Shown here piece after piece: positions 32,711-63,980 of a stretch of 64,000 bases of DNA; position 1 is the first letter of the stretch; each line of letters opens with the position of its first letter. The position numbers were made by a program, and so were the translations under genes. The DNA comes from Alphaproteobacteria bacterium (lineage in GTDB: Bacteria > Pseudomonadota > Alphaproteobacteria > CACIAM-22H2). The notes under the pieces were generated by a model, which did no database searches, was not told the DNA's origin, and saw only the letters and a program-made list of their open reading frames with translations. The stretch is taken from the NCBI GenBank assembly GCA_965279355.1, contig OZ257155.1, positions 1,961,048 through 2,025,047 of the forward strand, written 5' to 3'.

Positions 32711-32717
32711 GCCGACA

Positions 32718-33530: not shown

Positions 33531-33557
33531 GGGTTCGGACGAGTCGGGGATGCGCCT

Positions 33558-42628: not shown

Positions 42629-42643
42629 TTGCCGTCAAGGCAA
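42629..42643. promoter_or_regulatory. LysR-type T-N11-A palindrome
   Basis: ttgccgtcaaggcaa is a perfect dyad. It lies about 135 bp upstream of the Rieske oxygenase start and just downstream of the lysR stop. Confidence 0.3.
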
Positions 42644-42658
42644 TGCCAGTGGCGACGC

Positions 42659-43579: not shown

Positions 43580-43691
43580 GCAAAAAGGCTCCGGACGGAC
43601 GATGCACAATCAGTATGCATCGTTCCGCCCGGTCCGGAAACTTGTAATGACCGACTGGCCCTCAACGGGCCGGATTATTTAGCGTGACCCG

Positions 43692-44702: not shown

Positions 44703-44743
44703 CAACCTCTCCTTCAAATGCCGGCGCGGGGGCGTCGGCAGGG

Positions 44744-45802: not shown

Positions 45803-45850
45803 GGCTTTTCTCCCAATCTCTTCAGTCCGAAATCTGCAAATTCCAAGCCA

Positions 45851-46849: not shown

Positions 46850-47004
46850 GCTTCGACTCCAACACGCGCCCTAATCGGGGCGCCCTGCCCATCAATGCGC
46901 CAGTCCCGCGTTAACGCCAGACTGATAGGCCTGATTTGCGCACCAATGGCCCGGTCCTTGCTTCGTAACGGAGCAAGGCTCGTACCAATGACGGGAGACA
47001 TCCG

Positions 47005-48003: not shown

Positions 48004-48876
48004 GTGCACGCCCATCCAACCGGAGTACTTGCCGTGAAACTGCGCCGCCTGTGGCAGGAAATGACGACCGAGGAATTTCGCGCGCTCGATGCCGAGCGGG
48101 TGATCGCGATCCTGCCGGTCGCCGCGATCGAACAGCACGGCCCGCACCTGCCGGTCGAGGTCGATACCAGAATCAACGCCGGAATCCTGTCCCGCGCGGT
48201 GGAACTGATGCCGGCGGAACTGCCGGTCACGATCCTGCCCGCGATGACGGTCGGGAAAAGCAGCGAGCACACGGCGTTTCCCGGTACCCTGACCCTGACG
48301 GCCGAGACGACGATCCGGCTTTGGACCGAGATCGGCGAATCCGTGGCGCGTGCCGGTATCAAGAAGATGGTCATCTTCAACAGCCATGGCGGGCAGCCGC
48401 AGATCGCCGACATCGTCGCGCGCGACCTACGGGTGCGGCTCGGAATGTTCGTGGTGACCGTCAGCTCCTACAGCCTCGGCCGGCCGGAGGGCATGTTCCC
48501 GGAGCATGAACTCAAGCACGGCATTCATGGCGGCACCGTCGAAACGTCGCTGATGCTGCGGCTGCGCCCCGACCTGGTGCAGATGGACAAGGCCAAGAAT
48601 TTCGAATCGCTCTCCGCCCGCATGGAGACCGAATACGAGATGCTGACGCCGGAAGGCAAAGTCGGCTTCGGCTGGCAGACCCAGGATCTGAACCCGGATG
48701 GCGCCTGCGGTGACGCGTCAGCGGCGGATGCCGGCCGCGGATCGATCCTGCTGGATCACTGCGCGCAACGGTTAGTGTCGCTGCTCTGGGAGATCGACCG
48801 TTTCCCACTCTCCGCCATCGGTGTCAAATCCGAGCCGACACGCCGCGGGCCCATTCGCATCGTGACCAGCAACTGA
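48004..48876 (+). CDS. Creatininase-family amidohydrolase
   Basis: The creatinine amidohydrolase motif AIEQHGPHLP and binuclear-metal ligands are present. The start is uncertain (GTG 48004, GTG 48034 or ATG 48061). Confidence 0.7.
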   Translation: MHAHPTGVLAVKLRRLWQEMTTEEFRALDAERVIAILPVAAIEQHGPHLPVEVDTRINAGILSRAVELMPAELPVTILPAMTVGKSSEHTAFPGTLTLTAETTIRLWTEIGESVARAGIKKMVIFNSHGGQPQIADIVARDLRVRLGMFVVTVSSYSLGRPEGMFPEHELKHGIHGGTVETSLMLRLRPDLVQMDKAKNFESLSARMETEYEMLTPEGKVGFGWQTQDLNPDGACGDASAADAGRGSILLDHCAQRLVSLLWEIDRFPLSAIGVKSEPTRRGPIRIVTSN

Positions 48877-48901
48877 TCGCGAGACGCACGGAGATCATCC
48901 G

Positions 48902-49888
48902 ATGAATGTCTACCGCCCGGCGCGACCGGCCCTCCTGCCCGTCATCGACCTGTCCGGCGGCTTTTCGCCGTCGCTGGCGTCGCGACAGAGAGTCGCCGGG
49001 GAAATCGGAGCGGCGAGCCGGACGCATGGCTTTTTCTATGTCAGGAACCACAATGTTCCGCAGTACCTGATCGACAACCTGTTCGAGACAGCACGCCAGT
49101 TCTTCGCCATGCCGGCGGACGAGAAAGCGAAATGCACAGCCACGACGCCTTTCACGGCGCGTGGTTATGAAGGGTTCAACACCCAGGCTTTCGATCCCGA
49201 CGCGCCGGCGGACTACAAGGAAGGTTTCGTCCTCGGCATCGAACGGGGTCCCGATCATCCCTACGTCAAGGTCGGTGTACACAACCAGGGCGCCAATCTC
49301 TGGCATCCGGGGCAACCGGTGTTTCGCGCCGCGTCCGAAGACTATTTCAACGCGACCTTCCGGCTCGGTGTCGATCTCATGCGCCTGGTGGCGTTGTCGC
49401 TCGAACTCCCGGAAGATTTCTTCGACTCCCACTTCACCGATCCCATCGCCAATCTCCGGGTTCTGCACTATCCGGCGCACCCCAAGGACGCCCCGCCAGG
49501 CCAGCTCGGTTGCGGCGCGCACACTGACTGGGGCGCTTTGACCGTCCTGCTACAGGACGACTGCGGCGGGCTCGAGGTCCAGGGTGTCGACGGTGAGTGG
49601 ATTTTCGCCGAACCGGTCGAGGGCACCTTCGTCGTCAATCTCGGCGACCTGCTGGCGCGCTGGACCAACGATCTCTATCAATCCACGCCGCATCGCGTGA
49701 TGAACAACCGTTCCGGCCGTGACCGCTACTCGGCCGCCATGTTCCTTGACCCCAACCACTATTCGCAAATCGAGTGCCTGCCGAGCTGCCAGTCGGCGGG
49801 CCATCCGCCGAAATACCCGGTGTGCAGCGCCGGCGAGCACAATCTCGAAATGTACCGGCGCACGCACCCGACGGCGCCGACGGCTTAA
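48902..49888 (+). CDS. 2-oxoglutarate/Fe(II)-dependent dioxygenase (paralog of 45851..46849)
   Basis: 328 aa. It shares GAHTDWGALTVLLQDD and STPHRV blocks with the other copy. Confidence 0.75.
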   Translation: MNVYRPARPALLPVIDLSGGFSPSLASRQRVAGEIGAASRTHGFFYVRNHNVPQYLIDNLFETARQFFAMPADEKAKCTATTPFTARGYEGFNTQAFDPDAPADYKEGFVLGIERGPDHPYVKVGVHNQGANLWHPGQPVFRAASEDYFNATFRLGVDLMRLVALSLELPEDFFDSHFTDPIANLRVLHYPAHPKDAPPGQLGCGAHTDWGALTVLLQDDCGGLEVQGVDGEWIFAEPVEGTFVVNLGDLLARWTNDLYQSTPHRVMNNRSGRDRYSAAMFLDPNHYSQIECLPSCQSAGHPPKYPVCSAGEHNLEMYRRTHPTAPTA

Positions 49889-50145
49889 GCCACACTTCCG
49901 AAGATACAAAGGACGCCGGCAGCGGCAGTTGCTGTTTTGCTCCTCGGTTCCATGCCGCCAAGGCAACGGCGCGATTCTCGGACACCGTCCCGGATCATCG
50001 GACCAAAAAACCGCCATATGCGGGCGATCCCGTACGGACTGCGGATTAAACCGCAGCCAGCGTCACGATGCCGAACACCGCAAGGCTTGGTACGGCAATT
50101 GCTGTTCCTCCATCACCATAGGTTGTCCTGAACCAGGAGGTCGCA

Positions 50146-51138
50146 ATGGCTACCCATTCCCTGACACGCCGTACCGCTCTATCCCTCGCCGGTCTCGCGC
50201 TGCTGACGCCTGCCATCGCAGCCGCGCAGGACAAGGTTTCTTTCCAGACGAACTGGCGCGCCCAGGCCGAGCACGGCGGTTTCTATCAGGCGGTGGGCGC
50301 CGGCATCTACAAGAAGCACGGCCTTGAGGTGGAAATCCGCATGGGCGGGCCGCAGCAGGATCCCAATGCCCTGCTCCTCGCCGGCCGCGTCGACTTCATC
50401 ATGAACAACGCCTTCGGCGGCTTCAACTACGTGCGGGAAAACCTGCCCTTCATCGTGATCGCCTCGATGATGCAGAAGGATCCGCAGGTGCTGATCTCGC
50501 ATCCCGGCGTCGGCCATGACAGCCTCGCCGCCATGAAGGGCAAGCCGGTCCTCGTCGGCGCGGTGGCGCGCAACAGCTTCTACCCGTTCCTGAAGGCCAA
50601 GTTCGGATTCACCGATGAGATGATCCGACCCTATACGTTCAACATGGGGCCGTTCCTCGCCGACAAGAATGCGATCCAGCAGGGCTTCCTGACCAGCGAA
50701 GTGTTCTCCGCCGAACTCGCCGGCGTAAAGCCGGTCGTTCACCTGCTCGCCGACTCAGGCTTCGACAATTATCAGACAACGATCAATACATCGCTGAAAC
50801 TGATCGAAGCCAAGCCCGATCTCGTGCAGCGTTTCGTCAACGCCTCGATCGAAGGCTGGTACAGCTACATCTATAGCGATCCGACACCAGGCAACAAACT
50901 GATCAAAGCCGACAATCCGGATATGACCGACGACAAGATCGCCTACGCCATCGCAAAAATGAAGGAGTACGGCATCGTCGACTCAGGGGATTCAAAGACG
51001 CTCGGTATCGGCGCCATGACCGATGCGCGCTGGCAGCGGTTTTATAAAACCTATGTAGACGCCGGAATCTATCCGGCCACCCTGGACTATCGCAAGGCGT
51101 ACACCCTGCAGTTCGTCAACAAAAAGGTGGGAATGTGA
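50146..51138 (+). CDS. ABC transporter substrate-binding protein, NMT1/THI5-like
   Basis: 330 aa with a Tat/Sec-type signal (RRTALSLAGLALLTPAIAAAQ). It is the first gene of an SBP-ATPase-permease operon. Confidence 0.8.
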   Translation: MATHSLTRRTALSLAGLALLTPAIAAAQDKVSFQTNWRAQAEHGGFYQAVGAGIYKKHGLEVEIRMGGPQQDPNALLLAGRVDFIMNNAFGGFNYVRENLPFIVIASMMQKDPQVLISHPGVGHDSLAAMKGKPVLVGAVARNSFYPFLKAKFGFTDEMIRPYTFNMGPFLADKNAIQQGFLTSEVFSAELAGVKPVVHLLADSGFDNYQTTINTSLKLIEAKPDLVQRFVNASIEGWYSYIYSDPTPGNKLIKADNPDMTDDKIAYAIAKMKEYGIVDSGDSKTLGIGAMTDARWQRFYKTYVDAGIYPATLDYRKAYTLQFVNKKVGM

Positions 51139-51962
51139 GACCAGCTCTCGTTACGACGCCTCCCGCACCGCTTCCGGTCGGAGAAGTAGCCCGCGAACGG
51201 CCGGTCGTCAGCCTCACCGGTGTCAGCAAGCGCTTCTCGAACGGCACGCTGGCGGTGAAAGACTTCTCGCTGGCGGTCCAGCAGAACAGCTTCATCAGCC
51301 TGCTTGGTCCGTCGGGCTGCGGCAAGAGTACGGTGCTGCGCATGATCGCCGGTCTCGGCGATCCGTCGGCGGGCACGATTGACTGGCCGCTGGCGGCTTA
51401 CGACGCCGCCGGCAAGCCGATGCCCGATCTGGGCTTCGTCTTCCAGGAGCCGACGCTGATGCCGTGGGCGACCTCCATCAAGAACGTGATGCTGCCGCTG
51501 ATCCTGGCAGGAAAGTCCAAATCGGAGGCAAAGGACCAGGCCCTCGATGCGCTGGCGCAGGTCGGCCTGTCCGGCTTCGAGAATGCGTATCCGCGCGAGT
51601 TGTCGGGCGGCATGAAGATGCGCGTGTCGATCGCCCGCGCCATCGTCACCAAGCCGCGCGTGCTGCTGATGGACGAGCCGTTCGCGGCGCTGGACGAGAT
51701 CACCCGCTTCAAGCTGAACAACGACCTCCAGGAACTCTGGCAGAAGCTGAAGTTCACCGTGATCTTCGTGACGCACTCAGTCTTCGAGTCTGTCTATCTT
51801 TCGGAGCGCATCGTGGTCATGGCGGCCCGTCCTGGCCGTGTCATGACCGAGCTTGCCATCGGCGCGGCCTATCCCCGCGATGAAGCGTTCCGCACCTCAG
51901 CCAACTACGCGGAATACTGCCGCGTCGTGTCCCGCACCCTTGGTGAGGCGATTGCCGCATGA
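51135..51962 (+). CDS. ABC transporter ATP-binding protein
   Basis: Walker A GPSGCGKST, signature LSGGMKMR, Walker B LLMDEPF. It overlaps the binding-protein gene by 4 bp. Confidence 0.85.
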   Translation: MRPALVTTPPAPLPVGEVARERPVVSLTGVSKRFSNGTLAVKDFSLAVQQNSFISLLGPSGCGKSTVLRMIAGLGDPSAGTIDWPLAAYDAAGKPMPDLGFVFQEPTLMPWATSIKNVMLPLILAGKSKSEAKDQALDALAQVGLSGFENAYPRELSGGMKMRVSIARAIVTKPRVLLMDEPFAALDEITRFKLNNDLQELWQKLKFTVIFVTHSVFESVYLSERIVVMAARPGRVMTELAIGAAYPRDEAFRTSANYAEYCRVVSRTLGEAIAA

Positions 51963-52840
51963 CAACCATCTCCACGGCCCTGCCCAGCCTGGCCTCCGAC
52001 GGCACCGATTCCGGTCTCATCGCCGTCCCGCACGAAAAACGCTTCCTCGGCATCGCGGTTTCGACCTGGCCGAAGATCCTGGCGCCGATGTTCATCGGCA
52101 TCCTGGCGCTCGCGGCCTGGGAAATCACCGTCACCGTCTACAAGGTGCCGGCCTACATCCTGCCGGGTCCGATCCTGATCGTGCAGACCCTGTTCAAGGA
52201 CTGGCACACGCTGTCGACCTCGCTCTGGGTGACGTTGCAGATCACCTTCGCGGCGCTGGCCATCGCGGCCTCGCTTGGCGTGTTCATCTCGGTGCTGTTC
52301 AGCCAGTCGAAATGGGTCGAGTTCTCGTTCTTCCCGTATGCCGTCATCCTTCAGGTGACGCCGATCGTCGCCATCGCACCGCTGATCATCATCTGGGTCG
52401 ACAACATCCAGATCGCGCTGCTGATCTGCGCCTGGATCGTCGCGTTCTTTCCGATCCTGTCGAACACGATCCTGGGCCTGAACAGCGCCGACCATAACCT
52501 GCTGAACCTGTTCCAGCTCTATCGCGCCTCGCGCGGCCAGGTGCTGCGGCATCTGCGTATTCCCGCCGCCATGCCGTATTTCCTCGGCGGCCTGCGCATC
52601 TCCGGCGGCCTGTCGCTGATCGGCGCGGTCGTAGCGGAGTTCGTGGCCGGCACCGGCGGTCGCGCCTCAGGCCTTGCCTATCGCATCCTCGAGTCAGGAT
52701 ACCAGTTGCAGATTCCGCGCATGTTCGCGGCTCTGCTGCTGATCTCGCTCACCGGCATCGCGATCTTTCTGGTGTTGTCTCTGATCTCGCATCTCTGCCT
52801 GCGCAAATGGCACGAGAGCGCCATCCGTCGAGAGAATTGA
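51959..52840 (+). CDS. ABC transporter permease
   Basis: 293 aa polytopic membrane protein. It overlaps the ATPase gene by 4 bp. Confidence 0.8.
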   Translation: MTTISTALPSLASDGTDSGLIAVPHEKRFLGIAVSTWPKILAPMFIGILALAAWEITVTVYKVPAYILPGPILIVQTLFKDWHTLSTSLWVTLQITFAALAIAASLGVFISVLFSQSKWVEFSFFPYAVILQVTPIVAIAPLIIIWVDNIQIALLICAWIVAFFPILSNTILGLNSADHNLLNLFQLYRASRGQVLRHLRIPAAMPYFLGGLRISGGLSLIGAVVAEFVAGTGGRASGLAYRILESGYQLQIPRMFAALLLISLTGIAIFLVLSLISHLCLRKWHESAIRREN

Positions 52841-52841
52841 G

Positions 52842-54188
52842 ATGAGCGGTTTCGTTGCGATCCCCGATGCGCCGTCCTATTGGCTGCGGAACGGCAAGGT
52901 CTCGGCCTCGCTGCTCGCGGCACCAACCGGCAAGCCCGCCGACCGTGAAGGTCTGGTCGATGTCGACCTCGAAATCAGCGGCGGCAAAGTCGCCGCGATT
53001 GCGCCCGGCGGCACGTTTGTCGCGGCGGGCGCGGTCGATCTCAAGGGCGGGCAGATCTGGCCCGGCTTTGTCGATATCCACACCCATATGGACAAGGGCC
53101 ATATCTGGCCGCGCGCTGAAAACCCCGACGGCACATTCTTCGGCGCCTTTACCGCAACCGCGACCGACCGCCCGAACTGGCATCCCGCCGATGTGAAGCG
53201 GCGGTTCGATTTCGGTCTCCGCACCGCTTACGCGCACGGAACCGTTGCGATCCGCACCCATCTCGATTCCTGGGACCCGCAGGCGAAAATCTCGTGGAGC
53301 GTGTTCCGCGAGATCCGCGACGAATGGGCGGGCCGCATCGACCTGCAGGCAAGCTCCATCGTGCCGATGGATGCGTTCGGCCTGCCGTTTGGCGTCGAAC
53401 TGGCCGACACGGTCGCGAAATCGGGCGGCGTTCTCGGCGCCGTGACCCGCCTGAACGGCGGCCTGCACGACAGCGTGCCGCCGGAGTTCCAGCCGCTGCT
53501 TGATCGGATTTTCGACCTCGCCGAGGAACGGAATCTCGATCTCGACTTCCATGTCGACGAAAGCGGCGAACAGGGTGCGGCAGCCCTCGGCCACATCGCG
53601 CGGACCGCGATCCGTCGCAAATTCAAGAACAAGATACATTGCGGCCATTGCTGCAGCCTCGCCGTGCAGCCGGAAGAACTGGTGAAAGAGACGCTGAAGG
53701 CCTGCGCAGACTCAGGCCTCGCTGTGGTCAGCCTGCCGATGTGCAACATGTACCTGCAGGACCGCGTGCCGGGCCGCACGCCGCGCTGGCGCGGCGTCAC
53801 CCTGCTGCATGAGCTGAAGGCGAGCGGCGTGCCGGTCTCGGTCGCCAGCGACAACTGCCGCGATCCGTTCTACGGTTTTGGCGATCACGACGCCATGGAA
53901 GTGTTCACCCAGGCGACGCGCATCGCCCATTTTGACCGTCCCTATGGCGACTGGCCGCGCGCCGTAACCGCGACGCCGGCCGGCGTGATGAAGCTGGGCG
54001 ACCGCGGCACGATCAAGGTCGGCGGTCCCGCCGATCTCGTGCTGTTCCACGGACGCACCATGAGCGAACTGCTGTCGCGCCGTCAGAGCGACCGCGTCGT
54101 GCTGCGTGCCGGCAAGGCGATCGATACAACTCTGCCTGAGTACAGCGAGCTCGACGAGCTCTTCGTCGCCGCCGAAGCGGCCGCCTGA
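52842..54188 (+). CDS. Cytosine deaminase-like amidohydrolase (CodA/AtzC family)
   Basis: 448 aa with the HTH metal site (VDIHTHMDKGH) and the ..LDFHVDE.. motif typical of the cytosine deaminase/AtzC clade. Confidence 0.7.
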   Translation: MSGFVAIPDAPSYWLRNGKVSASLLAAPTGKPADREGLVDVDLEISGGKVAAIAPGGTFVAAGAVDLKGGQIWPGFVDIHTHMDKGHIWPRAENPDGTFFGAFTATATDRPNWHPADVKRRFDFGLRTAYAHGTVAIRTHLDSWDPQAKISWSVFREIRDEWAGRIDLQASSIVPMDAFGLPFGVELADTVAKSGGVLGAVTRLNGGLHDSVPPEFQPLLDRIFDLAEERNLDLDFHVDESGEQGAAALGHIARTAIRRKFKNKIHCGHCCSLAVQPEELVKETLKACADSGLAVVSLPMCNMYLQDRVPGRTPRWRGVTLLHELKASGVPVSVASDNCRDPFYGFGDHDAMEVFTQATRIAHFDRPYGDWPRAVTATPAGVMKLGDRGTIKVGGPADLVLFHGRTMSELLSRRQSDRVVLRAGKAIDTTLPEYSELDELFVAAEAAA

Positions 54189-54190
54189 CC

Positions 54191-55567
54191 ATGGGCGTGG
54201 ATGGGCTTCCCGTCCGGCCGTCCACGGCAGCGCTTGCCGATCTCAAAGCAGCCCTTGCCGGGCTGCAGATCATCGACGATCCGTCGACAGTACGGCTGCG
54301 CAGCCGAGATTTCTTCTGGTACAGCCCGCTTCTGAAGGAAGAGCTCAACAGCAAATCGGCCGACCTCATCGTCGTGCCGCAAAATGAAGAAGACGTGCTG
54401 CGGGTCGCGCGCGAATGCGTGGCGCGGCGCATCCCGATCGTGGTACGCGGCGGCGCCACTGGCAATTACGGACAGATGGTGCCGCTGGCCGGCGGCGTGC
54501 TGCTCGACATGGCGGCGATGAATCGCGTTCTCTGGCTGCGTCCCGGCATGGGGCGCTTCCAGGCCGGCGCCAAGCTGATCGATATCGACATCGCGGCGAT
54601 CCCCACCGGCTGGGAATTGCGGATGCATCCCTCGACCAAGCGTACCGCGACCATAGGCGGCTTTGCCTGCGGCGGCGCAGCGGGGGTCGGCTCGATCCTC
54701 TACGGTCAGCTGCGCGACCGCGGGTCGATCGCGGCGCTGCGCGTGGTCACGATGGAAGACGAGCCGCGCATCATAGAGCTGCGCGGCGACGAGATCCGCA
54801 ACGCGCTGCATGCCTATGGCACCAACGGCATCGTCACCGAAGTCGAGGTCGCCCTCGCCCCGGCTTGGCCGTGGCTGGACATGATTGCGGTGTTCGACGA
54901 CTTCGGGAAGATCGCTCAGTTCGCTCAACTTTGTGGTGAATCTGGCGGCATCGTCACCAAGCTTATCACTCTGATCGCCTGGCCTATTACAAGCTATTTC
55001 AAGGGGTTGAAGGAATTTCTGCCCGAGGGCAAACACATGGTCATCGCCATGGTGGCAAAGGGCAGTCGCGAGCCGTTTCTGAGCCTCGTGGCGGAGTTCG
55101 GCGGCAGCGTTACCTACGAGAAGAAGACACCGGCCGACGGCGATCCTACCCAAATACCGCTCTACGAATACACCTGGAACCACACGACGTTGCAGGTGCT
55201 CAAGACCGACCGCACCGTCACCTACCTGCAGACCATCTTCCCGCCGGGGCAGAACCTCGAGCGCGTCGACCACATGTACAAGAAGTTCGGCGACGAGGTG
55301 CTGATGCATTGCGAATTCCAGCGCCGCCAGGGCCGTATCTCCTGCAGCGCGCTGCAGATCGTGCGCTACTCCACGCCTGAGCGCCTGCGCGAGATCATCC
55401 GCTATCACGAGGAGAACGGCACCCGCATCTCCAACCCGCATACCTACATCCTCGAGGACAAGGGCCCCAAGGTCATCGACGCCGATCACCAGCTCACCTT
55501 CAAGCGCCTCACCGACCCTTACGGCCTGATGAACCCCGGCAAGATGAGCCGCTGGACGCCCGCATGA
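54191..55567 (+). CDS. FAD-linked oxidase (PCMH-type FAD-binding domain; vanillyl-alcohol oxidase/BBE-like superfamily)
   Basis: 458 aa with the N-terminal FAD_binding_4-like region (VVPQNEEDVLRVARECVARRIPIVVRGGATGNYGQ). Confidence 0.65.
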   Translation: MGVDGLPVRPSTAALADLKAALAGLQIIDDPSTVRLRSRDFFWYSPLLKEELNSKSADLIVVPQNEEDVLRVARECVARRIPIVVRGGATGNYGQMVPLAGGVLLDMAAMNRVLWLRPGMGRFQAGAKLIDIDIAAIPTGWELRMHPSTKRTATIGGFACGGAAGVGSILYGQLRDRGSIAALRVVTMEDEPRIIELRGDEIRNALHAYGTNGIVTEVEVALAPAWPWLDMIAVFDDFGKIAQFAQLCGESGGIVTKLITLIAWPITSYFKGLKEFLPEGKHMVIAMVAKGSREPFLSLVAEFGGSVTYEKKTPADGDPTQIPLYEYTWNHTTLQVLKTDRTVTYLQTIFPPGQNLERVDHMYKKFGDEVLMHCEFQRRQGRISCSALQIVRYSTPERLREIIRYHEENGTRISNPHTYILEDKGPKVIDADHQLTFKRLTDPYGLMNPGKMSRWTPA

Positions 55568-56943
55568 TGAACGCAGCCGAACGCTCCGCCTTCGTCCGCG
55601 CGATCGCACCGCTGCCAGTCATCGACGACCCGGCGCTGGTGAAACAGAAGTCGCGCGACTTCTACTGGTACAGCCCGATCCTCAAGGACCAGCTCCGCAG
55701 CGTGACCGCCGATCTCATCGTCGTGCCCCGCACCGTCGACGACGTCATCGCCGTCGCCCGCGAATGCGTGCGCAAACGCATTCCGCTCACGGTACGCGGC
55801 GGCGGCACCGGCAATTACGGCCAGGCGATGCCCCTCGACGGCGGCATCGTGCTCGACATGTCGGCGATGACCGCGATCAAAAAACTGGAAGACGGCGTCG
55901 TCACCGTCGAGCCCGGACTCAAGATCATCGATCTCGAAACCGCCACGCTGCCCGAAGGCTGGGAGATGCGCTTCCATCCCTCGACCCGCCGCACCGCGAC
56001 CATCGGCGGCTTCATCGCCGGCGGCTCGACCGGGGTCGGCGCCATCAATTACGGCCTGCTGCGCGATCGCGGCAACGTGCTGGCGCTCAAGGTCGTGACG
56101 ATGGAAGAGGAGCCGCGCGTGCTGGAGCTACGCGGCGACGACGTGCAGAAGGTCATCCACGCCTACGGCACCAACGGCATCGTCGTCGAGCTGGAGATCC
56201 CGCTCGCCCGCGCCTGGCCGTGGGTCGACGTGCTGGTCTCCTTCCCCGAATTCTCCGCCGCCGCGAAGTTCGGTCAGGCGCTCGCGGAATCCGAAGGCAT
56301 CATCAAGAAGCTGATCACCCCGGTCGACTGGGGTGCGGCGCAATACTTCAAGCCGCTGCAGCCCTTCCTGGTCGAGGGCCACGCGGTGGTCGTCACCATG
56401 ATCGCCGAACCATCGATGGAATCCTTCCAGGCGCTGGTCGGCGAGACCGGCGGCACCTGCGTCTATATCCGGGCCCCCGAAGCCGCCGCGCACGATGCCG
56501 TGCCGCCGCTCTACGAATTCACCTGGAACCATACGACCCTGCACGCGCTCAAGGCCGACCGCAGCATCACCTATCTGCAGACGCTGTTTCCGGCGCCGAA
56601 CCATCTCGAACTCGTCGCGCATATGCGCCAGAAATTCGGCGACGAAACGCCGATGCATCTGGAACTGGTGCGGTTGGACGGCCAGATCGGCTGCTTCGGC
56701 CTGCAGCTCGTCCGCTTCACGACGCCCGAGCGCCTCGACGAGATCATCGCCTATCACGAGGCGAAAGGCTGCCCGGTCTTCAACCCGCACACCTATGTGC
56801 TGGAAGACGGGGGCATGAAGGACATCGACCAGGACCAGCTCGGCTTCAAGCACCTCGCCGATCCGCACGGCCTGCTGAACCCGCGCAAGATGCGGGGGTG
56901 GACCGAGGATTCGAAATCGAAGTGGGTCAGAGCTGCGTCATAG
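55564..56943 (+). CDS. FAD-linked oxidase, tandem paralog of 54191..55567
   Basis: 459 aa, collinear with the first copy. They share IVVPRTVDDV..ARECV..RIP.TVRGGGTGNYGQ, YEFTWNHTTL and NPHTYVLED. The genes overlap by 4 bp. Confidence 0.65.
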   Translation: MMNAAERSAFVRAIAPLPVIDDPALVKQKSRDFYWYSPILKDQLRSVTADLIVVPRTVDDVIAVARECVRKRIPLTVRGGGTGNYGQAMPLDGGIVLDMSAMTAIKKLEDGVVTVEPGLKIIDLETATLPEGWEMRFHPSTRRTATIGGFIAGGSTGVGAINYGLLRDRGNVLALKVVTMEEEPRVLELRGDDVQKVIHAYGTNGIVVELEIPLARAWPWVDVLVSFPEFSAAAKFGQALAESEGIIKKLITPVDWGAAQYFKPLQPFLVEGHAVVVTMIAEPSMESFQALVGETGGTCVYIRAPEAAAHDAVPPLYEFTWNHTTLHALKADRSITYLQTLFPAPNHLELVAHMRQKFGDETPMHLELVRLDGQIGCFGLQLVRFTTPERLDEIIAYHEAKGCPVFNPHTYVLEDGGMKDIDQDQLGFKHLADPHGLLNPRKMRGWTEDSKSKWVRAAS

Positions 56944-57514
56944 CGGTCCACGCCCGGTCGAGAAACCGGCGGCGTCGCTCCATCGTCCCCCGATTCATAT
57001 CGTAGAACGCGACATAATTGGCGCGGCAGCCGAAACCGCACAGCGCCTTGAAGTAGCGCGTGATGTGGCCGCGCGGCAGGTCGCCGACGATCAGCCGCAC
57101 ATGCCACCATGGCCGCCCATAGGTCGCGACGCCGACGATCCGTTTGATGTTGGTCAGTGCCGGCCGCGCGATGCCGTCCTCGCCCAGGGTGAATGACACG
57201 CCCGGCACCAGCACCCGGTCGAACCAGCCCTTGAGGATGGCCGGCACGCCGAAACTCCAGGTCGGAAACACGAACACCACGGCGTCGGCCCGCTGCAGCC
57301 GTACGGCGTAACTGTCGACCAGTGCCCGGTTGCGCGTCAGGTCGTGATAATCCTGCCGCTCCGCCGCGCTCAACACCGGATCGAATTTCTCGGCATAGAG
57401 ATCGCAATCGTCGACCTCATGCCCGGCGGCGCGCAGCGCATTGAGGACCGTCCGGTGGACTTCGGCGTTGAAACTGTCGCCCAGCGGGTGGGCGTAGAGG
57501 ACGAGGACTTTCAT
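56927..57514 (-). CDS. Flavodoxin-like fold NAD(P)H-dependent oxidoreductase (NQO/MdaB-like)
   Basis: 195 aa. It begins MKVLVLYAHP, typical of FMN-dependent NAD(P)H quinone/azo reductases. Confidence 0.6.
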   Translation of the reverse strand: MKVLVLYAHPLGDSFNAEVHRTVLNALRAAGHEVDDCDLYAEKFDPVLSAAERQDYHDLTRNRALVDSYAVRLQRADAVVFVFPTWSFGVPAILKGWFDRVLVPGVSFTLGEDGIARPALTNIKRIVGVATYGRPWWHVRLIVGDLPRGHITRYFKALCGFGCRANYVAFYDMNRGTMERRRRFLDRAWTAMTQL

Positions 57515-57542
57515 ATCCTCGGCAGTGCAAGAGGAGTGCCGC

Positions 57543-59204
57543 TTATGGTCCCGCGACGACCGGCAGCATCACTCGCGATGGCGTCTGACCGCCGTGCCGC
57601 AACGTCACCGTGATGATGCGCTGATCGATCAGCCGCGCCGTGGCCGGCGGGGCGCCGTCGCCGGTGTTCACGGGATGCGCCGGGAAACTGCCGGGCGAGA
57701 CCGACAGGCGCAGCGCCGAGCCGGCCTTGATGCAGGCGCAGGTCGCGCGCATTGAAATCGTCACCGGCGACGTCGGTTTGTCCAGTCTCGCATAGCCTTC
57801 GGTGAGGTTGATCACGCGGCCGTCGGGCTTCACTTCGGACAGGATCGCGCAGACATCGAAGCTCGGCTGGTCCGCTTCGACAAACAGGATGGCGGCGACG
57901 TTGCCTGCCAGATGCAGATCGGTTTTCTGCACCGGCATGGTGAAGGTGGCGACATCAGGGCGCATGTCGGCGGAGGCGCGGTTGGCGGGGCCGAGCGGAT
58001 AGGCCTTGTGGCCGCCGACAGTTGGCGTCGGGCGCCAGGGATCGAAGACGAGGACATCCTCGCCGGCTGGACCGGCGCTCTCCGTGAGAACACCATCCCT
58101 GGGATCGAGACCGGCGCGGCCGCAGCTGCGCAGATGCATGTCCTTCGCCGCCGCTGCCGGCCAGGAGTCGAACTCACTCCATGAGCCGCCCATTTCGAAC
58201 AGGCGCACCGGCTTCTGCTTCATCACGCCGGTGTCGATCCCTTTCAGCCAATGATCGAACCACTGGATCTGTAGATGATCGATCATGTTGATCGCGGTGT
58301 CGCCGAACTCCACCTCACCGACCTTGGTCGCCCACGGGATATGCACCCAAGGACCGACGACTAGTTTCTGGTTGGCGACCTTGCGGCGGACCATGTCCTG
58401 ATAGCAGCCCAGGGTGCCGCTCAGCATGCCGTCGTACCAGCCGCCGATATGCAGCATCGGCACGTCGATTTTATCGGCATGGAAGCGGGGCGATATCTTC
58501 TCCCAGAACGGACCCGGTTCGGGATGCGAGACCCAGGCCGGATAGTGACCGAACTGGCCGTAGCGCTGCATCACATCCGGCATCGCCGGGATGGCGTCAT
58601 TCAACGGCATGGCGCGCGCGGCCGAAACCAGCGCGCGGTGCGCGTCGACATTACCGGCACGGCGCGTGGCTTCGGCGGAGAGCTGCGCGCCCCAGCCCAG
58701 GCCGGCATAGAACCGGAACGCATCGCCCTCGAAGGCGATATCGCTGTAGACATCCCAGGCGGACATCGCGGGGCACAGCGCCTTGAGCGCCGGATGCTTC
58801 GTCGCGGCAGCAAAGAGCTGCGTCATGCCCTGATAGGAAAAGCCGTACATGCCGATGACGCCGCTCGACCCCGGCAGCTTTGCCGCCCAGTCCAGCGTAT
58901 CGGCGCCGTCAGCGACTTCGGATTCGAAGATGCGGAATTCGCCTTCCGAGGTGCCGCGCCCGCGCACGTCCTGAATGACGACGATATAGCCGTGCTGCGC
59001 GTACCAGCTGGGATGGGCATAGACGACGGTGGACGCGATTGAGCGCCCATACGGCTGGCGCATCAGCAGGACCGGAAACGGACCCGCGGCATCGGGCCTG
59101 TAGATATCGGCCTCGAGCCGCACGCCGTCGCGCGTCTTCATCGACACCGTTTCGCGCGGCTTCAGCTTATAGCGCGCCGCCGCCGGCTTGCGGTCATCCG
59201 GCAT
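57543..59204 (-). CDS. CocE/NonD-family alpha/beta hydrolase (S15 X-Pro dipeptidyl-peptidase-like)
   Basis: 553 aa with nucleophile elbow GFSYQG and the C-terminal beta-sandwich domain typical of CocE/NonD proteins. Confidence 0.7.
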   Translation of the reverse strand: MPDDRKPAAARYKLKPRETVSMKTRDGVRLEADIYRPDAAGPFPVLLMRQPYGRSIASTVVYAHPSWYAQHGYIVVIQDVRGRGTSEGEFRIFESEVADGADTLDWAAKLPGSSGVIGMYGFSYQGMTQLFAAATKHPALKALCPAMSAWDVYSDIAFEGDAFRFYAGLGWGAQLSAEATRRAGNVDAHRALVSAARAMPLNDAIPAMPDVMQRYGQFGHYPAWVSHPEPGPFWEKISPRFHADKIDVPMLHIGGWYDGMLSGTLGCYQDMVRRKVANQKLVVGPWVHIPWATKVGEVEFGDTAINMIDHLQIQWFDHWLKGIDTGVMKQKPVRLFEMGGSWSEFDSWPAAAAKDMHLRSCGRAGLDPRDGVLTESAGPAGEDVLVFDPWRPTPTVGGHKAYPLGPANRASADMRPDVATFTMPVQKTDLHLAGNVAAILFVEADQPSFDVCAILSEVKPDGRVINLTEGYARLDKPTSPVTISMRATCACIKAGSALRLSVSPGSFPAHPVNTGDGAPPATARLIDQRIITVTLRHGGQTPSRVMLPVVAGP

Positions 59205-59631
59205 GGCGCGCGCCTGCGATCACCGCTTTGTCTTCCGCATCCAGCGTGACCGGAATGCCATTGCGGATCAGCTGCGCGAAATCCTCATTAGGCACCATAA
59301 CGGTCAGGCAGTAGAGCTTGCCGGCACCGGTGTTCTCGACCACATGCGTGCCGCCCGGGCGGACCATCAGCGCGTCACCGGCCTTCACGACCTTCTCGGC
59401 GCCGTCGCAATACGCGATCCCCTCGCCTGCCAGGACGAAGAACATCTCATGGGCGCGCTGGTGGACGTTGGGCGGAGTCTTGCCACCCTTCTCGAAAATC
59501 TCGATCACGCAGGTGAGATCGACATTGTCGCCCTCGGGATCGAAGATCATCGCGAAGTAGTTCGAATCGCCCGCCGCGATGCGATAGGCGCGGCATTCCG
59601 TCATGGTCTTCGCAATCAGATGGGATGTCAT
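59194..59631 (-). CDS. Cupin domain protein
   Basis: About 145 aa small-barrel cupin (..HQRAHEMFFVLAGEG.. ...GGTHVVEN). Its ATG overlaps the stop of the upstream isochorismatase-like gene (ATGA). Confidence 0.6.
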   Translation of the reverse strand: MTSHLIAKTMTECRAYRIAAGDSNYFAMIFDPEGDNVDLTCVIEIFEKGGKTPPNVHQRAHEMFFVLAGEGIAYCDGAEKVVKAGDALMVRPGGTHVVENTGAGKLYCLTVMVPNEDFAQLIRNGIPVTLDAEDKAVIAGARHAG

Positions 59632-60401
59632 TTCTTGAATCCCTTGCGGATGGCCGCACCCGACGCGACGAAACCGAAGCACTGCTTCACGTTATAGACC
59701 GTCGCGTCCCAGCAGAATTGCGGCGATGTGGTCGCCGAGCAGTCGGAAACCATGATGCAGTCGTAGCCCAGGAAATTCGCGTCCTGGAGCGTGCACAACA
59801 CGCATTGGTCGGCATTCACGCCGCCGAACAACAGCGTGGTGATGCCGAGATTGCGCAGCACTGAGTCGAGTTCGGTGTCCCAGAAGCCGCTCATCCGGTA
59901 CTTGTCGATGTGGATGTCGTCCTTGTGCGGTTTTAGGCCATCGACGATGGCTGCCGCCCAGCTTCCCTTCTGCAGCACCGGCGCCTTGCTCTTTGGCAAC
60001 GGATCGCCAAGACCGACGCCCTTGCCGGTCGGCTTGTAGACATGCAGCAGCGACGGGCTGAGGTTGAGCTTGTCGGGACGGTTGCCCCAGTTCACCCAGA
60101 TCACGGGAACATCGGCGCCGCGCAGTACCGGTAGCAGCGCGTTCAGCGGTTTGATCGGCTGGCGCGCGGGTGTCACATCGACACCAATGTGCGCGAGCCA
60201 GCCCTTGGGCGAACAGAAATCGTTCTGCATATCGATGACGATCATCGCGGTGCGCGCGGCATCGATGACCAGCTTCTGCGGCTCGGCATCGATGGATATG
60301 GGACGGATTTTGCGCCCCTGCCGCGTCATGTCGACCTTGGTCTCGGACACCTGCCAGGCGGTCACCGGCGCCGATCCCAGGGACACTAAACCTCTAGCCA
60401 A
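59628..60401 (-). CDS. Isochorismatase-like cysteine hydrolase (family of RutB, biuret hydrolase and N-carbamoylsarcosine amidase)
   Basis: 257 aa with the catalytic D-K-C arrangement context (IVIDMQNDF ... GGVNADQCVLCT). Confidence 0.7.
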   Translation of the reverse strand: MARGLVSLGSAPVTAWQVSETKVDMTRQGRKIRPISIDAEPQKLVIDAARTAMIVIDMQNDFCSPKGWLAHIGVDVTPARQPIKPLNALLPVLRGADVPVIWVNWGNRPDKLNLSPSLLHVYKPTGKGVGLGDPLPKSKAPVLQKGSWAAAIVDGLKPHKDDIHIDKYRMSGFWDTELDSVLRNLGITTLLFGGVNADQCVLCTLQDANFLGYDCIMVSDCSATTSPQFCWDATVYNVKQCFGFVASGAAIRKGFKK

Positions 60402-60502
60402 ATCAGCCTCCTAGCCGTCCCTGCCCGAAAATTAGGCAGACATCATCTCGCCCGGGTGAACTTGCAAGAGGGGTGCCGGACGCCTCACCCGCGTCTCTTC
60501 CG

Positions 60503-60633
60503 TCACCCCGCACTTGATGCGGGGCCCATCGTGCCGAGGGTGCGGTCGCTCCCATGAGCGCGCCGACGTCGGCACATCCATACCGATGTCATCGAAAGCG
60601 GAGACATGGGCCCCGCATCAAGTGCGGGGTGAC
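60503..60633. repeat. Perfect 28-bp inverted repeat flanking a ~75-bp spacer; each arm is itself a 7-bp-stem hairpin. MITE/REP-like element or complex terminator
   Basis: Arm1 gtcaccccgcacttgatgcggggcccat (60503-60530) is the exact reverse complement of arm2 atgggccccgcatcaagtgcggggtgac (60606-60633). Confidence 0.6.
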
Positions 60634-60665
60634 AGAAATGGAGAGAGACAGAGCCTCGACCGCCC

Positions 60666-61043
60666 CTACCCCATCAGACTCACATGCGCCGACACGACCC
60701 GCCAGCCGTCCGGGGTGCGCATCCAGGTCTGGGACTGGCGGCCGATCTTGGGCGTGCTGTCGCGGCGGAATTCGGTGTTGGCGGTCGCCATGTCGCGGCC
60801 GTAAGTCGTGATCACCGTGTTCTGGATGGTGCGCGCGAGGCCGGCCGAGGGACGCCCAGCGCGGAAGGCCTGGATCTGTTCGTAGCCGTAGAGATTTTCA
60901 CCGGCGCCGTAGCGGATGGTGAGCGGGCTTTTCCAGAACAGCTCGTCCAGAACATCGACTTCGTTGTTGACCAGCGCTTTTTCGTAGCGCGCAAACGCCG
61001 CCTGCATTTCGGCGACGACATCGGGCAGATTGATCTCAAGCAT
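60666..61043 (-). CDS. AtzH-like NTF2/SnoaL-fold small protein (DUF3225-type)
   Basis: 125 aa immediately downstream of the AtzE-like amidase. The gene order G-E-H matches the Pseudomonas sp. ADP atzGEH arrangement. Confidence 0.5.
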
Positions 61044-61056
61044 TCCTGTTGTTCCC

Positions 61057-62448
61057 TTACAGCGCAGCCACAGGTGCGGCGGCGACTCCCAGACGTTCCA
61101 GCTCGGCGGCGACGCGCAGCACCGTCGCCTCTTCCCACGGACGGCCGATAACCTGAATGCCCATCGGCATGCCGGGTCCCGCGATCGGCACCGCCGCCAC
61201 CGGCAGGCCGATGAAGGAGATCGGCTGGGTGTAGAGGCCGAGATTGCTGCGGACCACCACCTCCTTGCCGGCGGCGATCATCATTTTCTGTTCGAGCTCG
61301 GGGGCCGTGACCGGCGTGGACGGTGCCAGCACCACATCCACGGTCTTGAACAGTTCCGCCACCTGATGGCGATACCAGTGACGGAAGCGCTGCGCGCGAT
61401 TGACCCAGGCGGCGGGAATCAGCGCGCCCGCCAGCAGGCGGTCGCGCGTCTCGAAATCGAAGTCCTTGGCACGAACGCGGATGCGGTCCAGATGCAGCGC
61501 CGCCCCTTCCGATGCCGTGATGACGAACGCGGCGGCACGCGCGCGCGCGGCTTCGGGAAACTCGACGGTGCGTGTAACACCCAGCGCCTTCGCGGCCTTG
61601 GCGACAGCGGCCGTCGCGTCGGCGCCGAGATTGTCGGCGAAATAACCGCCGGCCACGGCGATGCGTAGCCCGCCAACACCTTCACCGATTGATGGGAGCG
61701 CCAGTTCGACCGGACGATTGGCGCAGGCCGTGTCTTCGGGATCGGGGCCCTGCATCGAGTCATAGGACAGCGCGAGATCGCGCGCGGTGCGGGCCAGCGG
61801 TCCCAGATGGTCGAGACTGGCGACGAACGGAAAGCTGCGGCGCCGGGACAGGCGGCCGAAGCTCGGCTTCAGGCCGAAAATGCCGCACAGCGACGACGGC
61901 ACGCGGATCGAGCCGTTGGTATCGGAGCCGAGCGCCAGCGGCACAAGGCTGGCGCCGACCGCCGTGCCGGAGCCGCCCGACGAACCGCCGGACATGCGGC
62001 CCAGATCGTGCGGATTGCGCGAGTGATCGTAATGTTCGTTGCGTCCCGTGAAGTCATAGGCGTATTCGCCCATGTTGAGCGCGCCGACCAGAATGGCGCC
62101 TGCCGCCTCAAGCCGCTCGATCAGCACCGCGTCGTGCTTGGCGGGCGCAAGCTCGCGGTTGATCTTCGATCCCGCAAGCGTGGTGACACCTGAAATGTCG
62201 AACAGGTTCTTGACCGCGAACGGAACGCCGGCCAGCGGGCCGGGTTTCTCGCCGCGCGCGATCCGCTCGTCCATCTCCTTCGCGCGTTTACGGGCCCGGT
62301 CGCCCGTGACTTCGGTAAAGGCGTTCAGCTTGGGATTGAGAGCGGCGATGCGGGTCAGTGTCGCGTCGATCACCGCCGTCGCGGTGAGCGTGCGGCCCTG
62401 CATGTCGGCGGCGATTTCGGCAACGCTTTTCACGGAAAGGTCGCTCAT
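61057..62448 (-). CDS. AtzE-like amidase-signature hydrolase (1-carboxybiuret hydrolase family)
   Basis: 463 aa with AS-family core [11 protein letters not shown] and upstream K. It overlaps the GatC-like small-subunit gene by 4 bp. No gatB is nearby. Confidence 0.65.
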
Positions 62449-62630
62449 CGCGGGGTGAACACCGCGGCCGGTTCCTCGCTCTCGTCGAGCGGGAAGTCGC
62501 TCACGAATTTCGCCATCGCGATGATGAGCGCGAAATTCTCCTGCACCACCGGCATGTATTCCGGCGCGATGGGGAGCGCCATGGTTTTCGCCAGGGTCTC
62601 GATTTGGGCCTTGAGATCGGTGTCTGTCAT
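62445..62630 (-). CDS. AtzG-like small subunit (GatC-like, about 60 aa)
   Basis: 61 aa acidic helical protein translationally coupled to the AtzE-like gene. Confidence 0.5.
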   Translation of the reverse strand: MTDTDLKAQIETLAKTMALPIAPEYMPVVQENFALIIAMAKFVSDFPLDESEEPAAVFTPR

Positions 62631-62639: not shown

Positions 62640-63980
62640 CTAGAGTGCGATTTGAAGATCGTCGAGTTCCCGGTAATCGGGCAATTTGCGGTCGATGGGA
62701 CGGCCATTGCGCAGCACGACACGGTCGGACTGCGGCCGGGCCAGCAGCTCGCTCATGGAGCGCGCGTGGAAGAGGATGAGATCGGCGTTCATGCCGGGCT
62801 TGATGCGACCCAGTTCGGGAAGGCGCATGACATCGGCCGGGGTGCGCGTCACCACGCGCGGCCAGTCGGTGTGCGGATAGTCGAGATGGGCGATGCGGAC
62901 TGCCTGGTTATAGGTGTCGTGCATGTCGAGATCGCCGAACTCGTGGAAGGAGTCGCGCGTGTTGTCGCTGCCGACGGTCACAGTCACACCGCGCGCACGC
63001 AGCTCATGCAGCAGCGTCACGCCCCGCCAGCGCGGTGTGACCCCCGCATTGCGCGCCTGCACATACATGTTGCAGGTCGGCATGCTGGCCACCGCGAGGC
63101 CTGAATCGGCGCAGGCATCCAGCGTGTCTTTCACCAGCTGATCGGGCTGGATGGACAGGCTGCAGCAATGGCCGGTGACGATCTTTCCCTTGAAGCCGCG
63201 TTTGATCGCGGTGCGGGCGATGAAGCCCAGCGCCACGGCGCGGGGATCGCCGCCCTCGTCGACATGGAAATCGAGATCGAGATTCCGTTCCTCGGCCAGC
63301 TTGAAGAAATTATCCAGCATCGCCTGCAGGTCGGCAGGCATGCCGTTCTCATGGTCGCTATGGACCAGGCGCGTGACGCAGCCGAGATTGCCGCCGGCGT
63401 CGGCGACCATGTCGGCCAGCTTCGGGCCGAACGGCGACATGAAGGTGTCGATGGAAACGAGGCTGGTCGCCTGCAACGCGATCTTCCCGGCCCATTCGTC
63501 GCGCAGGTCGCGGAAGACCTTGTACGAAATGGCGGCCTGCGATTCGTAGACATCGAGATGCGTGCGCAGCGCGGCCGTGCCATGCACATAGGCGCAGCGC
63601 AGCGCAAAATCGGCTCTCCGCTTGACGTCGTCATAGGACCAGCGGCGCGTGCGGTCATCGACGATGGTCTTGACCGCGGTCGGGAACGAGCCGTCGACGC
63701 TGGGGGCCCGCGGCCAGATATGGCCCTTGTCGAGATGGGTGTGGATGTCGACGTAACACGGCCAGATCTGGTCGTTGTCGAGATCGATCCCGCCATCGGA
63801 GCCCAGCGTGCCGGCCGGGGCGACGGACGTCACCCGGCCGCCGGCAATATCCATATCGATGTCGATCAGGCCGCTGGAGTCGACCGGGCCCGGCGGCGGC
63901 ATGTCGAGAAGGGCCGCCAGGACCCGCGCCCGGCGCAGGCGCAGATCACCGGTGTCAGGCAGTTTGAGGTAGTCGGACAT
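62640..63980 (-). CDS. Cytosine deaminase-like amidohydrolase (CodA/AtzC family), paralog of 52842..54188
   Basis: 446 aa collinear with the other copy (VDIHTHLDKGHIWPRA, ERNLDLDFHVDE, RWRGVTLLHEL). Confidence 0.7.
   Translation of the reverse strand: MSDYLKLPDTGDLRLRRARVLAALLDMPPPGPVDSSGLIDIDMDIAGGRVTSVAPAGTLGSDGGIDLDNDQIWPCYVDIHTHLDKGHIWPRAPSVDGSFPTAVKTIVDDRTRRWSYDDVKRRADFALRCAYVHGTAALRTHLDVYESQAAISYKVFRDLRDEWAGKIALQATSLVSIDTFMSPFGPKLADMVADAGGNLGCVTRLVHSDHENGMPADLQAMLDNFFKLAEERNLDLDFHVDEGGDPRAVALGFIARTAIKRGFKGKIVTGHCCSLSIQPDQLVKDTLDACADSGLAVASMPTCNMYVQARNAGVTPRWRGVTLLHELRARGVTVTVGSDNTRDSFHEFGDLDMHDTYNQAVRIAHLDYPHTDWPRVVTRTPADVMRLPELGRIKPGMNADLILFHARSMSELLARPQSDRVVLRNGRPIDRKLPDYRELDDLQIAL

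Follow-up and report, generated by a model that had tools for sequence, protein, structure and literature searches.

An atzG-atzE-atzH-type amidase set without atzD, adjoining a conserved island of about 19 kb in an alphaproteobacterial chromosome

An AtzG/AtzE/AtzH-type gene set without an AtzD partner

The DNA analyzed here is a stretch of 64,000 nucleotides (nt) from an alphaproteobacterial genome (GenBank assembly GCA_965279355.1, contig OZ257155.1, positions 1,961,048 to 2,025,047 of the forward strand), hereafter called the window. Towards its end, three co-linear open reading frames (ORFs) on the minus strand encode proteins of 61, 463 and 125 amino acids (aa), and the stop codon of the smallest overlaps the start codon of the amidase gene that follows it (ATGA). 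An earlier note on this window had likened the three to the atzG, atzE and atzH genes of Pseudomonas sp. ADP; its coordinates, sizes and overlap are correct, and the gene order indeed matches that of plasmid pADP-1, where the operon reads atzD-atzG-atzE-atzH-atzF. The spacer between the atzE- and atzH-like genes is 13 nt long. The unit begins upstream with a gene for a PRK07583-type amidohydrolase, which ends 9 nt before atzG. As judged from its sequence, the locus is a genuine AtzG/AtzE/AtzH-type amidase set without AtzD.

The 463-aa amidase passes the AtzE family of NCBIfam (NF006631; 700.5 bits, cut-off 461) as well as TIGR02715 (671.3 bits, cut-off 425.75), and among PDB sequences it matches AtzE itself (6c62_A) with 502.6 bits. 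The Lys/cis-Ser/Ser triad is present as K80 (AVKNLFD), S156 (GGSSGGS) and S180 (GSDTNGSIR), all aligned with the AtzE of strain ADP. Identity amounts to 54% with ADP AtzE, 49% with Klebsiella HpxY and 60–67% with alphaproteobacterial homologues, and the next-best relative among 5.8 billion proteins is 68% identical. A nucleotide search of plasmids returned short, distant matches only. GatCA is the ancestor of AtzEG (PMC6219798) and GatA is the second-best family match of the amidase (262 bits), both of which speak for a GatC-GatA paralogue acting in tRNA-dependent transamidation. Such a role is nonetheless hardly credible: the GatA score stays below its cut-off of 481 while the AtzE score exceeds its own, the AtzE structure scores twice as high as the best GatA structure (247 bits), no GatB is found among the scanned window ORFs, and the context is catabolic. 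The possibility raised in the earlier note that the amidase might group with GatA is answered by these scores and by a tree that places the protein with AtzE.

The same note had considered that the 125-aa protein might lack the DUF3225/AtzH fold. The protein matches the Pfam AtzH-like family (PF11533, 206.6 bits) and passes the NCBIfam HpxZ model (NF033625; 216.5 bits, cut-off 135), and in the PDB it aligns with AtzH (6bjt; 162.5 bits, E = 4e-47) and with an uncharacterized homologue (2rcd; 178 bits, E = 5e-52). The fold question is settled, because the sequences match the solved AtzE and AtzH. Of the AtzH residues, Tyr22 and Arg46 were reported to be necessary for catalysis, with Arg73 also named (PMC6219798); they correspond to Y20, R44 and R71 here. 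Their equivalents are kept in Klebsiella HpxZ too, so these residues do not discriminate between an AtzH and an HpxZ substrate. The 61-aa ORF passes the Pfam AtzG-like family (PF13318, DUF4089; 57.8 bits, cut-off 24), matches the structure of pADP-1 AtzG (6c62_C) weakly (E = 0.007) and does not pass the NCBIfam HpxX model (18.2 bits, cut-off 70). Its product is expected to act as partner and solubilizer of the amidase.

Pfam and NCBIfam scans covered essentially all substantial ORFs of the window, and in the scanned ORFs no ring-opening amidohydrolase, GGT/HpxW, GatB or ureidoglycolate dehydrogenase (Ldh_2) domain is present. With pADP-1 AtzD as the tblastn query, no match at E ≤ 1e-3 occurs in the window, in line with what the earlier note had stated, nor does any of the 168 fetched loci give a match except pADP-1 itself; none of 80 related genomes has AtzD within 10 kb of the triad. 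These results bear on the classical explanation, namely that atzD or trzD lies elsewhere in the genome and that the triad, together with an allophanate hydrolase (AH) in the window, forms the lower half of the s-triazine pathway. It is suggested by the gene order shared with pADP-1, the 54% identity to a biochemically characterized AtzE, the AH and the AtzC-like amidohydrolase directly upstream, whose best PDB match is AtzC (2qt3, 80 bits). We nevertheless deem it quite improbable. Besides the absence of AtzD from the window and from around the related triads, atzGEH clusters are seldom associated with atzD (PMC6219798), and the upstream amidohydrolase is a PRK07583 protein (593 bits) rather than AtzC, with a paralogue elsewhere in the window.

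Compared with the pADP-1 atzDGEHF operon (structures 6C62 and 6BJT), the locus thus has the same three families, order, coupling of the small ORF and catalytic motifs. It differs in that a PRK07583 amidohydrolase occupies the upstream slot of atzD, and in that atzF follows downstream in pADP-1 whereas the AH of the window is 19 kb away on the opposite strand. Moreover, it is chromosomal instead of residing on a catabolic plasmid, and its AtzG is only weakly similar.

Allophanate hydrolase and GntR as usual partners

Gene sets of this kind have been described before. Esquirol et al. (2018; PMC6219798) reported more than 30 genomes with atzG-atzE-atzH clusters, which comprise enterobacterial ggt-atzGEH clusters, allophanate hydrolase-associated clusters, those of Bordetella and Achromobacter with atzH apart from atzG-atzE, and clusters in unique contexts. 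The atzGEH cluster was proposed to be older than the cyanuric acid operon, and its genetic context was described as giving little clue to function (PMC6219798). PGAP labels such sets routinely (DUF4089, ‘AtzE family amidohydrolase’ and ‘oxalurate catabolism protein HpxZ’). AtzD-less atzGEH is therefore already published and routinely annotated, and the locus itself is ordinary apart from the island in which it is embedded. Added here are a quantified linkage to AH and GntR, a conserved island that is repeatedly joined to AtzE or AH, and the purine context.

The related set consists of 80 species-representative loci with AtzE homologues of 59–67% identity, mostly from Bradyrhizobium, Xanthobacteraceae, Azorhizobium, Methylobacterium and Azospirillum. 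Neighbours were counted in the 59 loci that have at least 5 kb on both flanks. AtzH is present in 56 of these and directly adjacent in 53; an AH homologue (~50% identity) lies at most 10 kb from the triad in 49, and a GntR homologue (~52% identity) accompanies the triad in 40. The most common layout is atzG-atzE-atzH-gntR, convergent with AH. AtzG was detected by tblastn in 44 of the 80 loci, and a small-ORF search combined with a hidden Markov model gave the same 44 of 80. In neighbour-joining trees, the amidase of the window falls inside the AH-linked clade with 70% bootstrap support; the sister of this clade is ADP AtzE, and Klebsiella HpxY is placed outside.

The earlier note had placed the matching AH some 20 kb away, next to a GntR regulator, and this is borne out (Table 1); the enzyme is also the usual partner in related genomes. 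In the window, the strand of gntR and AH faces that of atzGEH in a convergent arrangement with ~19 kb interposed, so that the few kb around the triad contain neither GntR nor AH. As AH and GntR adjoin the triad in 49 and 40 of the 59 loci, respectively, the GntR-AH pair of the window can be seen as the normal partner, displaced. Given this tie to AH and GntR across Alphaproteobacteria, the product of the triad is probably allophanate, and the module works without AtzD.

The closest relatives are accordingly the atzGEH-gntR/AH modules of Bradyrhizobium, Xanthobacteraceae, Azorhizobium, Methylobacterium and Terrarubrum, which fall in the same clade, lack AtzD and belong to the class that Esquirol et al. 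(2018) described as allophanate hydrolase-associated. They share the homologous GntR and AH genes and the convergent orientation. However, AH and GntR adjoin the triad in these modules, while in the window ~19 kb lies between them and gntR is found upstream of AH instead of after atzH.

A conserved island between allophanate hydrolase and the triad

A larger context was overlooked in the earlier note: AH and the triad are separated by a conserved island, and purine-catabolism genes are also present in the window (Table 1). The island spans positions 41453–60401 (~19 kb), and within its last same-strand block (56927–60401) the genes overlap or abut at their junctions.

Table 1. Positions of the genes and elements discussed, counted from the first nucleotide of the window.
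Feature	Position	Strand	Remarks
Allantoate amidohydrolase	9087-10367	minus	
PuuD-type membrane urate oxidase	10495-11694		
PuuE allantoinase	11699-12640		
OHCU decarboxylase/HIU hydrolase fusion	12640-13527		
Xanthine dehydrogenase XdhB	25242-27563	minus	
Xanthine dehydrogenase XdhA	27567-29108	minus	
GntR-family regulator	38728-39435	plus	directly upstream of AH
Allophanate hydrolase (AH)	39514-41322	plus	NF006043 828 bits, cut-off 487; 49% identity to pADP-1 AtzF
Rieske/VanA-type oxygenases	41453-42493, 44744-45802		
LysR	42659-43609		
NMT1-type binding proteins of the island	start 43692, 47005, 50146		
2-oxoglutarate (2OG) oxygenases	start 45851, 48902		
Creatininase-family protein	48004-48876		
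ATP-binding cassette (ABC) ATPase and permease	51135-52840		
PRK07583 amidohydrolase (island copy)	52842-54188	plus	
Two FAD_binding_4 oxidoreductases	54191-56943		
Flavodoxin-like NAD(P)H oxidoreductase	56927-57514	minus	
CocE/NonD hydrolase	57543-59204	minus	
Cupin	59194-59631/59682	minus	
Isochorismatase-family cysteine hydrolase	59628-60401	minus	likely true start ATG 60326
Inverted-repeat element, like a miniature inverted-repeat transposable element (MITE) or repetitive extragenic palindrome (REP)	60498-60637		140 nt, within the 264-nt atzH-isochorismatase gap
atzH/hpxZ-family NTF2-like (DUF3225) protein	60666-61043	minus	125 aa; PF11533, NF033625
atzE-family Ser-cisSer-Lys amidase	61057-62448	minus	463 aa; NF006631 / TIGR02715
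atzG-like gene	62445-62630	minus	61 aa; GatC-derived small subunit; Pfam PF13318
PRK07583-type ‘cytosine deaminase-like’ amidohydrolase	62640-63980	minus	446 aa; NF005759 593 bits, cut-off 403

The metagenome contig L087 (ENA ERZ27257032 k141_441139) is syntenic with the island at 44–84% aa identity, most genes being 67–84% identical, and it keeps the order of the block formed by the isochorismatase, cupin, CocE/NonD and flavodoxin-like genes (67–79%). At the position where the window has its triad, L087 carries genes for an AtzG-like protein and for an AtzE homologue (63%); AtzH and a second PRK07583 gene are missing. In the metagenome contig L106 (JGI Ga0070665_100001744), a GGT/HpxW-like gene, a 69-aa ORF, AtzE (699 bits) and AtzH are followed by the isochorismatase, the cupin and the remaining island. 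Both contigs therefore carry atz-type genes directly upstream of the isochorismatase-cupin-CocE/NonD-flavodoxin-like block (AtzG-like and AtzE in L087; small ORF, AtzE and AtzH in L106), and both have the transporter, amidohydrolase and FAD-oxidase genes known from the window close by. L106 differs from the window in that the GGT-like gene takes the place of PRK07583, and its AtzE belongs to a separate deep lineage (~55% identity). Partial versions of the island occur in L085, L086 and L029, the last of which is a Rhodoplanes metagenome-assembled genome (MAG) where atzE and AH precede the island genes. Hence, four arrangements are observed: AH-island-atzHEG in the window, atzE-AH-island in L029, island-atzE-atzG in L087 and ggt-atzGEH-island in L106. 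That the island is joined to AtzE or AH in four differing ways points to functional coupling rather than chance adjacency.

The isochorismatase-cupin pair by itself is widespread, with more than 500 relatives at 62–83% identity. Orthologues of the isochorismatase (65–83%) nearly always have a cupin, an FAD oxidase and a creatininase-family gene beside them, and neither AtzE nor AH. In the metagenome loci L094, L095 and L099, a variant of the pair is preceded by genes for an AH homologue (~51%), for a second amidase and for a polysaccharide deacetylase resembling PuuE (56% identity to the PuuE of the window), which is a further tie of the isochorismatase-cupin module to ureide/allophanate chemistry. 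A different neighbourhood is seen in L074, a Xanthobacteraceae MAG: the cluster of circularly permuted ATP-grasp, alpha-E, transglutaminase-like and proteasome-type genes that lies at 30326–34295 (plus strand) in the window occurs there at 5363–9341, directly beside AtzE/AH; this gives a hint of where the AH module was ancestrally located.

The flanking amidohydrolase and isochorismatase-family enzymes

The earlier note had also argued that flanking CodA/AtzC-like and isochorismatase-like enzymes strengthen the link to carboxy-urea chemistry. Genes of both kinds are present. The best PDB matches of the upstream PRK07583 protein are AtzC (2qt3, 80 bits) and CodA (75 bits), both of them distant, and the HxH and HxxE motifs, which are typical of the deaminase branch, are kept in the PRK07583 proteins. 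To our knowledge, the family apparently has no member whose substrate is known. The two paralogues of the window share 59% identity, and each belongs to one of the two facing operons. A 256-aa fragment that is 97% identical to the product of the upstream gene is found in a JGI metagenome (P0144).

The support from the isochorismatase-family protein is looser. It does not reach the cut-offs of RutB (144 bits against 378) or BiuH (125 against 370), and no TrtA-specific model is among its family matches. Compared with PDB sequences, it scores 116 bits with RutB, 103 and 101 bits with BiuH (6azo and 6xjm) and 80 bits with TrtA (6xix), and the Asp-Lys-Cys motifs are kept. RutB, BiuH and TrtA all hydrolyse ureido or carbamoyl amides, and the chemistry class therefore fits this protein. 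As the gene is part of a separate, widespread isochorismatase-cupin module, however, it supports ureido-amide chemistry of the locus only loosely. An assignment of the protein as TrtA or BiuH is not supported: its scores are below the cut-offs, RutB is its closest match, and it occurs in a widespread context of its own that is linked to a cupin.

This bears on a specific sub-case of the explanation preferred below, i.e., the scavenging of triuret or biuret. Triuret is a fertilizer impurity. A TrtA/BiuH-like isochorismatase would make 1-carboxybiuret from it, which AtzEG, AtzH and AH would mineralize. TrtA yields carboxybiuret that AtzEG can consume, and the chemical oxidation of urate gives triuret as well as cyanuric acid, converging on carboxybiuret (PMC7948467). 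The neighbour's matches to BiuH and TrtA with its conserved Asp-Lys-Cys motifs also fit, as do isochorismatase-family genes near the triad in 14 of the 59 related loci and in Terrarubrum. Yet, these genes are only ~33% identical to that of the window, the orthologues of the latter almost always occur without AtzE or AH, which suggests another native substrate, and the BiuH score is below cut-off with RutB the closest relative. We consider triuret or biuret scavenging rather unlikely.

Purine-catabolism genes and the oxalurate alternative

The window encodes xanthine dehydrogenase, urate oxidase, the OHCU/HIU fusion, allantoinase and allantoate amidohydrolase (Table 1), and an NMT1-type ABC transporter (13540–16293) follows the purine genes. 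These genes make an oxalurate role of the Hpx type a serious rival. Here, allantoin would give rise to oxalurate via ureidoglycolate, and an HpxXYZ-type branch would turn the oxalurate into oxamate, ammonia and CO2 and so serve the purine genes. The Klebsiella cluster hpxX-atzE-hpxZ has the gene order of the window, L106 links a GGT/HpxW-like gene and a triad to the same island, and the NCBIfam model passed by the 125-aa protein bears the name ‘oxalurate catabolism protein HpxZ’. That model is, however, non-discriminating. PGAP gives the genuine pADP-1 AtzH the same name, and the name was accordingly rejected as evidence for oxalurate. The small ORF remains under the HpxX cut-off, and the amidase, at 49% identity to Klebsiella HpxY, is placed in the AH-linked clade. 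Neither GGT/HpxW nor ureidoglycolate dehydrogenase is encoded in the scanned ORFs, and a 184-aa C-terminal fragment of Klebsiella HpxW had no match in the window. Furthermore, the purine genes lie 32–51 kb from the triad and are not near it in the 80 related loci, for which reason they were rejected as general companions of the triad. Taken together, the oxalurate branch is an unlikely explanation, if one to be taken seriously.

Relative to hpxW-hpxX-hpxY-hpxZ (ggt-atzGEH) of Klebsiella and other Enterobacteriaceae, the locus thus shares the triad and its order, the lack of AtzD, the purine setting and the match to the HpxZ model. It differs by the absence of a GGT-family HpxW, the HpxX model that is not passed and an amidase that is 49% identical to HpxY, which lies outside the clade of the window.

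A hairpin element and residue changes in AtzE

The gap between atzH and the isochorismatase gene contains an inverted-repeat element that occurs as a single copy in the window. Its arms of 32 nt are 97% complementary and 76 nt apart. On the transcribed strand, the element forms a single hairpin (-102.6 kcal/mol, z = -10.6), after which no U-tract is present. It may mark a rearrangement junction between gene blocks or have an effect on mRNA processing. Promoter and terminator scans stayed at chance level, and no riboswitch or other RNA family was found in the window with Rfam.

To describe the residues in which the AtzE of the window departs from its relatives, we compared it over 147 columns of an alignment with 79 alphaproteobacterial AtzE proteins; each of these columns is conserved to at least 95% in the 79 and has the same residue in ADP AtzE. 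The window AtzE deviates at 7 of these 147 columns, against a background with a median of 1 and a maximum of 9. Two deviations are common to the window and L087. One is E136R (E132 in ADP AtzE), by which FTTEN is turned into FTGRN; the other affects G386 (G382 in ADP AtzE). The glutamate at position 136 is kept in ADP AtzE, Klebsiella HpxY and L106, and the G386 position is likewise unchanged in these three.

Proposed function

We consider it more likely than not that the triad processes, together with AH, an anionic acyl-urea that is either 1-carboxybiuret or one of its analogues, for instance oxalurate, and is supplied by an enzyme other than AtzD. By analogy with the characterized pADP-1 enzymes, AtzG would stabilize AtzE as a heteromeric Ser-cisSer-Lys amidase. 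AtzE would then cut the terminal carbamoyl amide of the small anionic acyl-urea, giving ammonia and an N-carboxylated intermediate, from which the NTF2-like AtzH would strip the carboxyl group before the intermediate decays to a dead-end product. The resulting allophanate would pass to the AH at 39.5 kb, which would release the remaining nitrogen. In pADP-1, 1-carboxybiuret is deamidated by AtzEG and the flux to AtzF is sped by AtzH (PMC6219798); 1-carboxybiuret is also formed without AtzD, from triuret (PMC7948467). The source of the substrate would most probably be the ~19-kb island, acting on some N-heterocycle or ureide. On this reading, the region from 38.7 to 64 kb is one nitrogen-scavenging supercluster. 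Among the individual candidates, 1-carboxybiuret is a plausible though still doubtful substrate of the triad, another acyl-urea made by the island is somewhat more doubtful, and oxalurate more doubtful again.

Several points weigh against an acyl-urea role fed by the island and completed by AH. No known 1-carboxybiuret-forming enzyme is identified, and for the isochorismatase neighbour, TrtA (80 bits) is a more distant match than RutB (116 bits). The AH, being 19 kb away, could serve a different pathway. The 264-nt gap and its very stable hairpin part atzH from the island genes, so that co-transcription is uncertain. A true AtzE stands beside the isochorismatase-cupin pair in only one of 80 metagenome loci (L106), besides L087 and the window, and AtzE is thus an accessory to the island, not part of its core, with a coupling that is not obligatory. 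The triad of L106 is paired with a GGT/HpxW-like gene and not with AH, which indicates an oxalurate-type substrate, at least in L106. Finally, the E-to-R change shared with L087 may reflect an altered specificity of AtzE.

A more far-reaching version is that the triad forms the acyl-urea-processing end of a conserved ~19-kb pathway for an N-heterocycle or cyclic ureide, candidates being a methylated pyrimidine or a ring of the creatinine, hydantoin or parabanate type. The oxidation and opening of this ring, and not AtzD, would then yield the AtzEG substrate. The PRK07583 amidohydrolase would take the slot that AtzD has in pADP-1 and GGT-HpxW in Enterobacteriaceae, and E136R would mark a shifted specificity of the island-embedded AtzE. 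We hold this version as possible, but would not expect it to be the case. The broader assignment as an acyl-urea-processing module partnered with AH remains the one we prefer. What AtzEGH-type modules did in nature before herbicides came into use has yet to be settled, and the locus adds two leads, i.e., the tie to AH and GntR and the recurrent island, whose attachment provides concrete genes and candidate substrates. If the substrate of the island were identified, a natural source of the AtzEG substrate could be named, which would help to explain from where the lower half of the s-triazine pathway was recruited.

Other features of the window

The window looks like a general organic-nitrogen scavenging neighbourhood. 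Seven genes for NMT1/THI5-like (NitT/TauT-type) binding proteins are found within 64 kb (at 13540, 22022, 34905, 37545, 43692, 47005 and 50146), several with their own ATPase and permease. Between the transporter of the purine cluster and a TRZ/ATZ-type amidohydrolase, a 356-aa ORF on the plus strand (16410–17480) shows a strong coding signal, with a third-codon-position GC content (GC3) of 0.83, and has no match in Pfam, NCBIfam or the PDB sequences. The region 20837–25113 combines a RutA-like luciferase-type monooxygenase (270 bits, below the cut-off of 498), an NMT1 binding protein, an FAD monooxygenase that is 3-hydroxybenzoate 6-monooxygenase-like and also HpxO-like, and an extradiol dioxygenase; it may be another heterocycle or aromatic catabolic unit beside xanthine dehydrogenase. 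The window opens with a Tad/Flp pilus cluster on the minus strand (1–7088), comprising TadC, CpaF, CpaE, CpaD, the secretin CpaC, CpaB and the prepilin peptidase CpaA, which is followed by two Crp/Fnr-type regulators (7558–9083).

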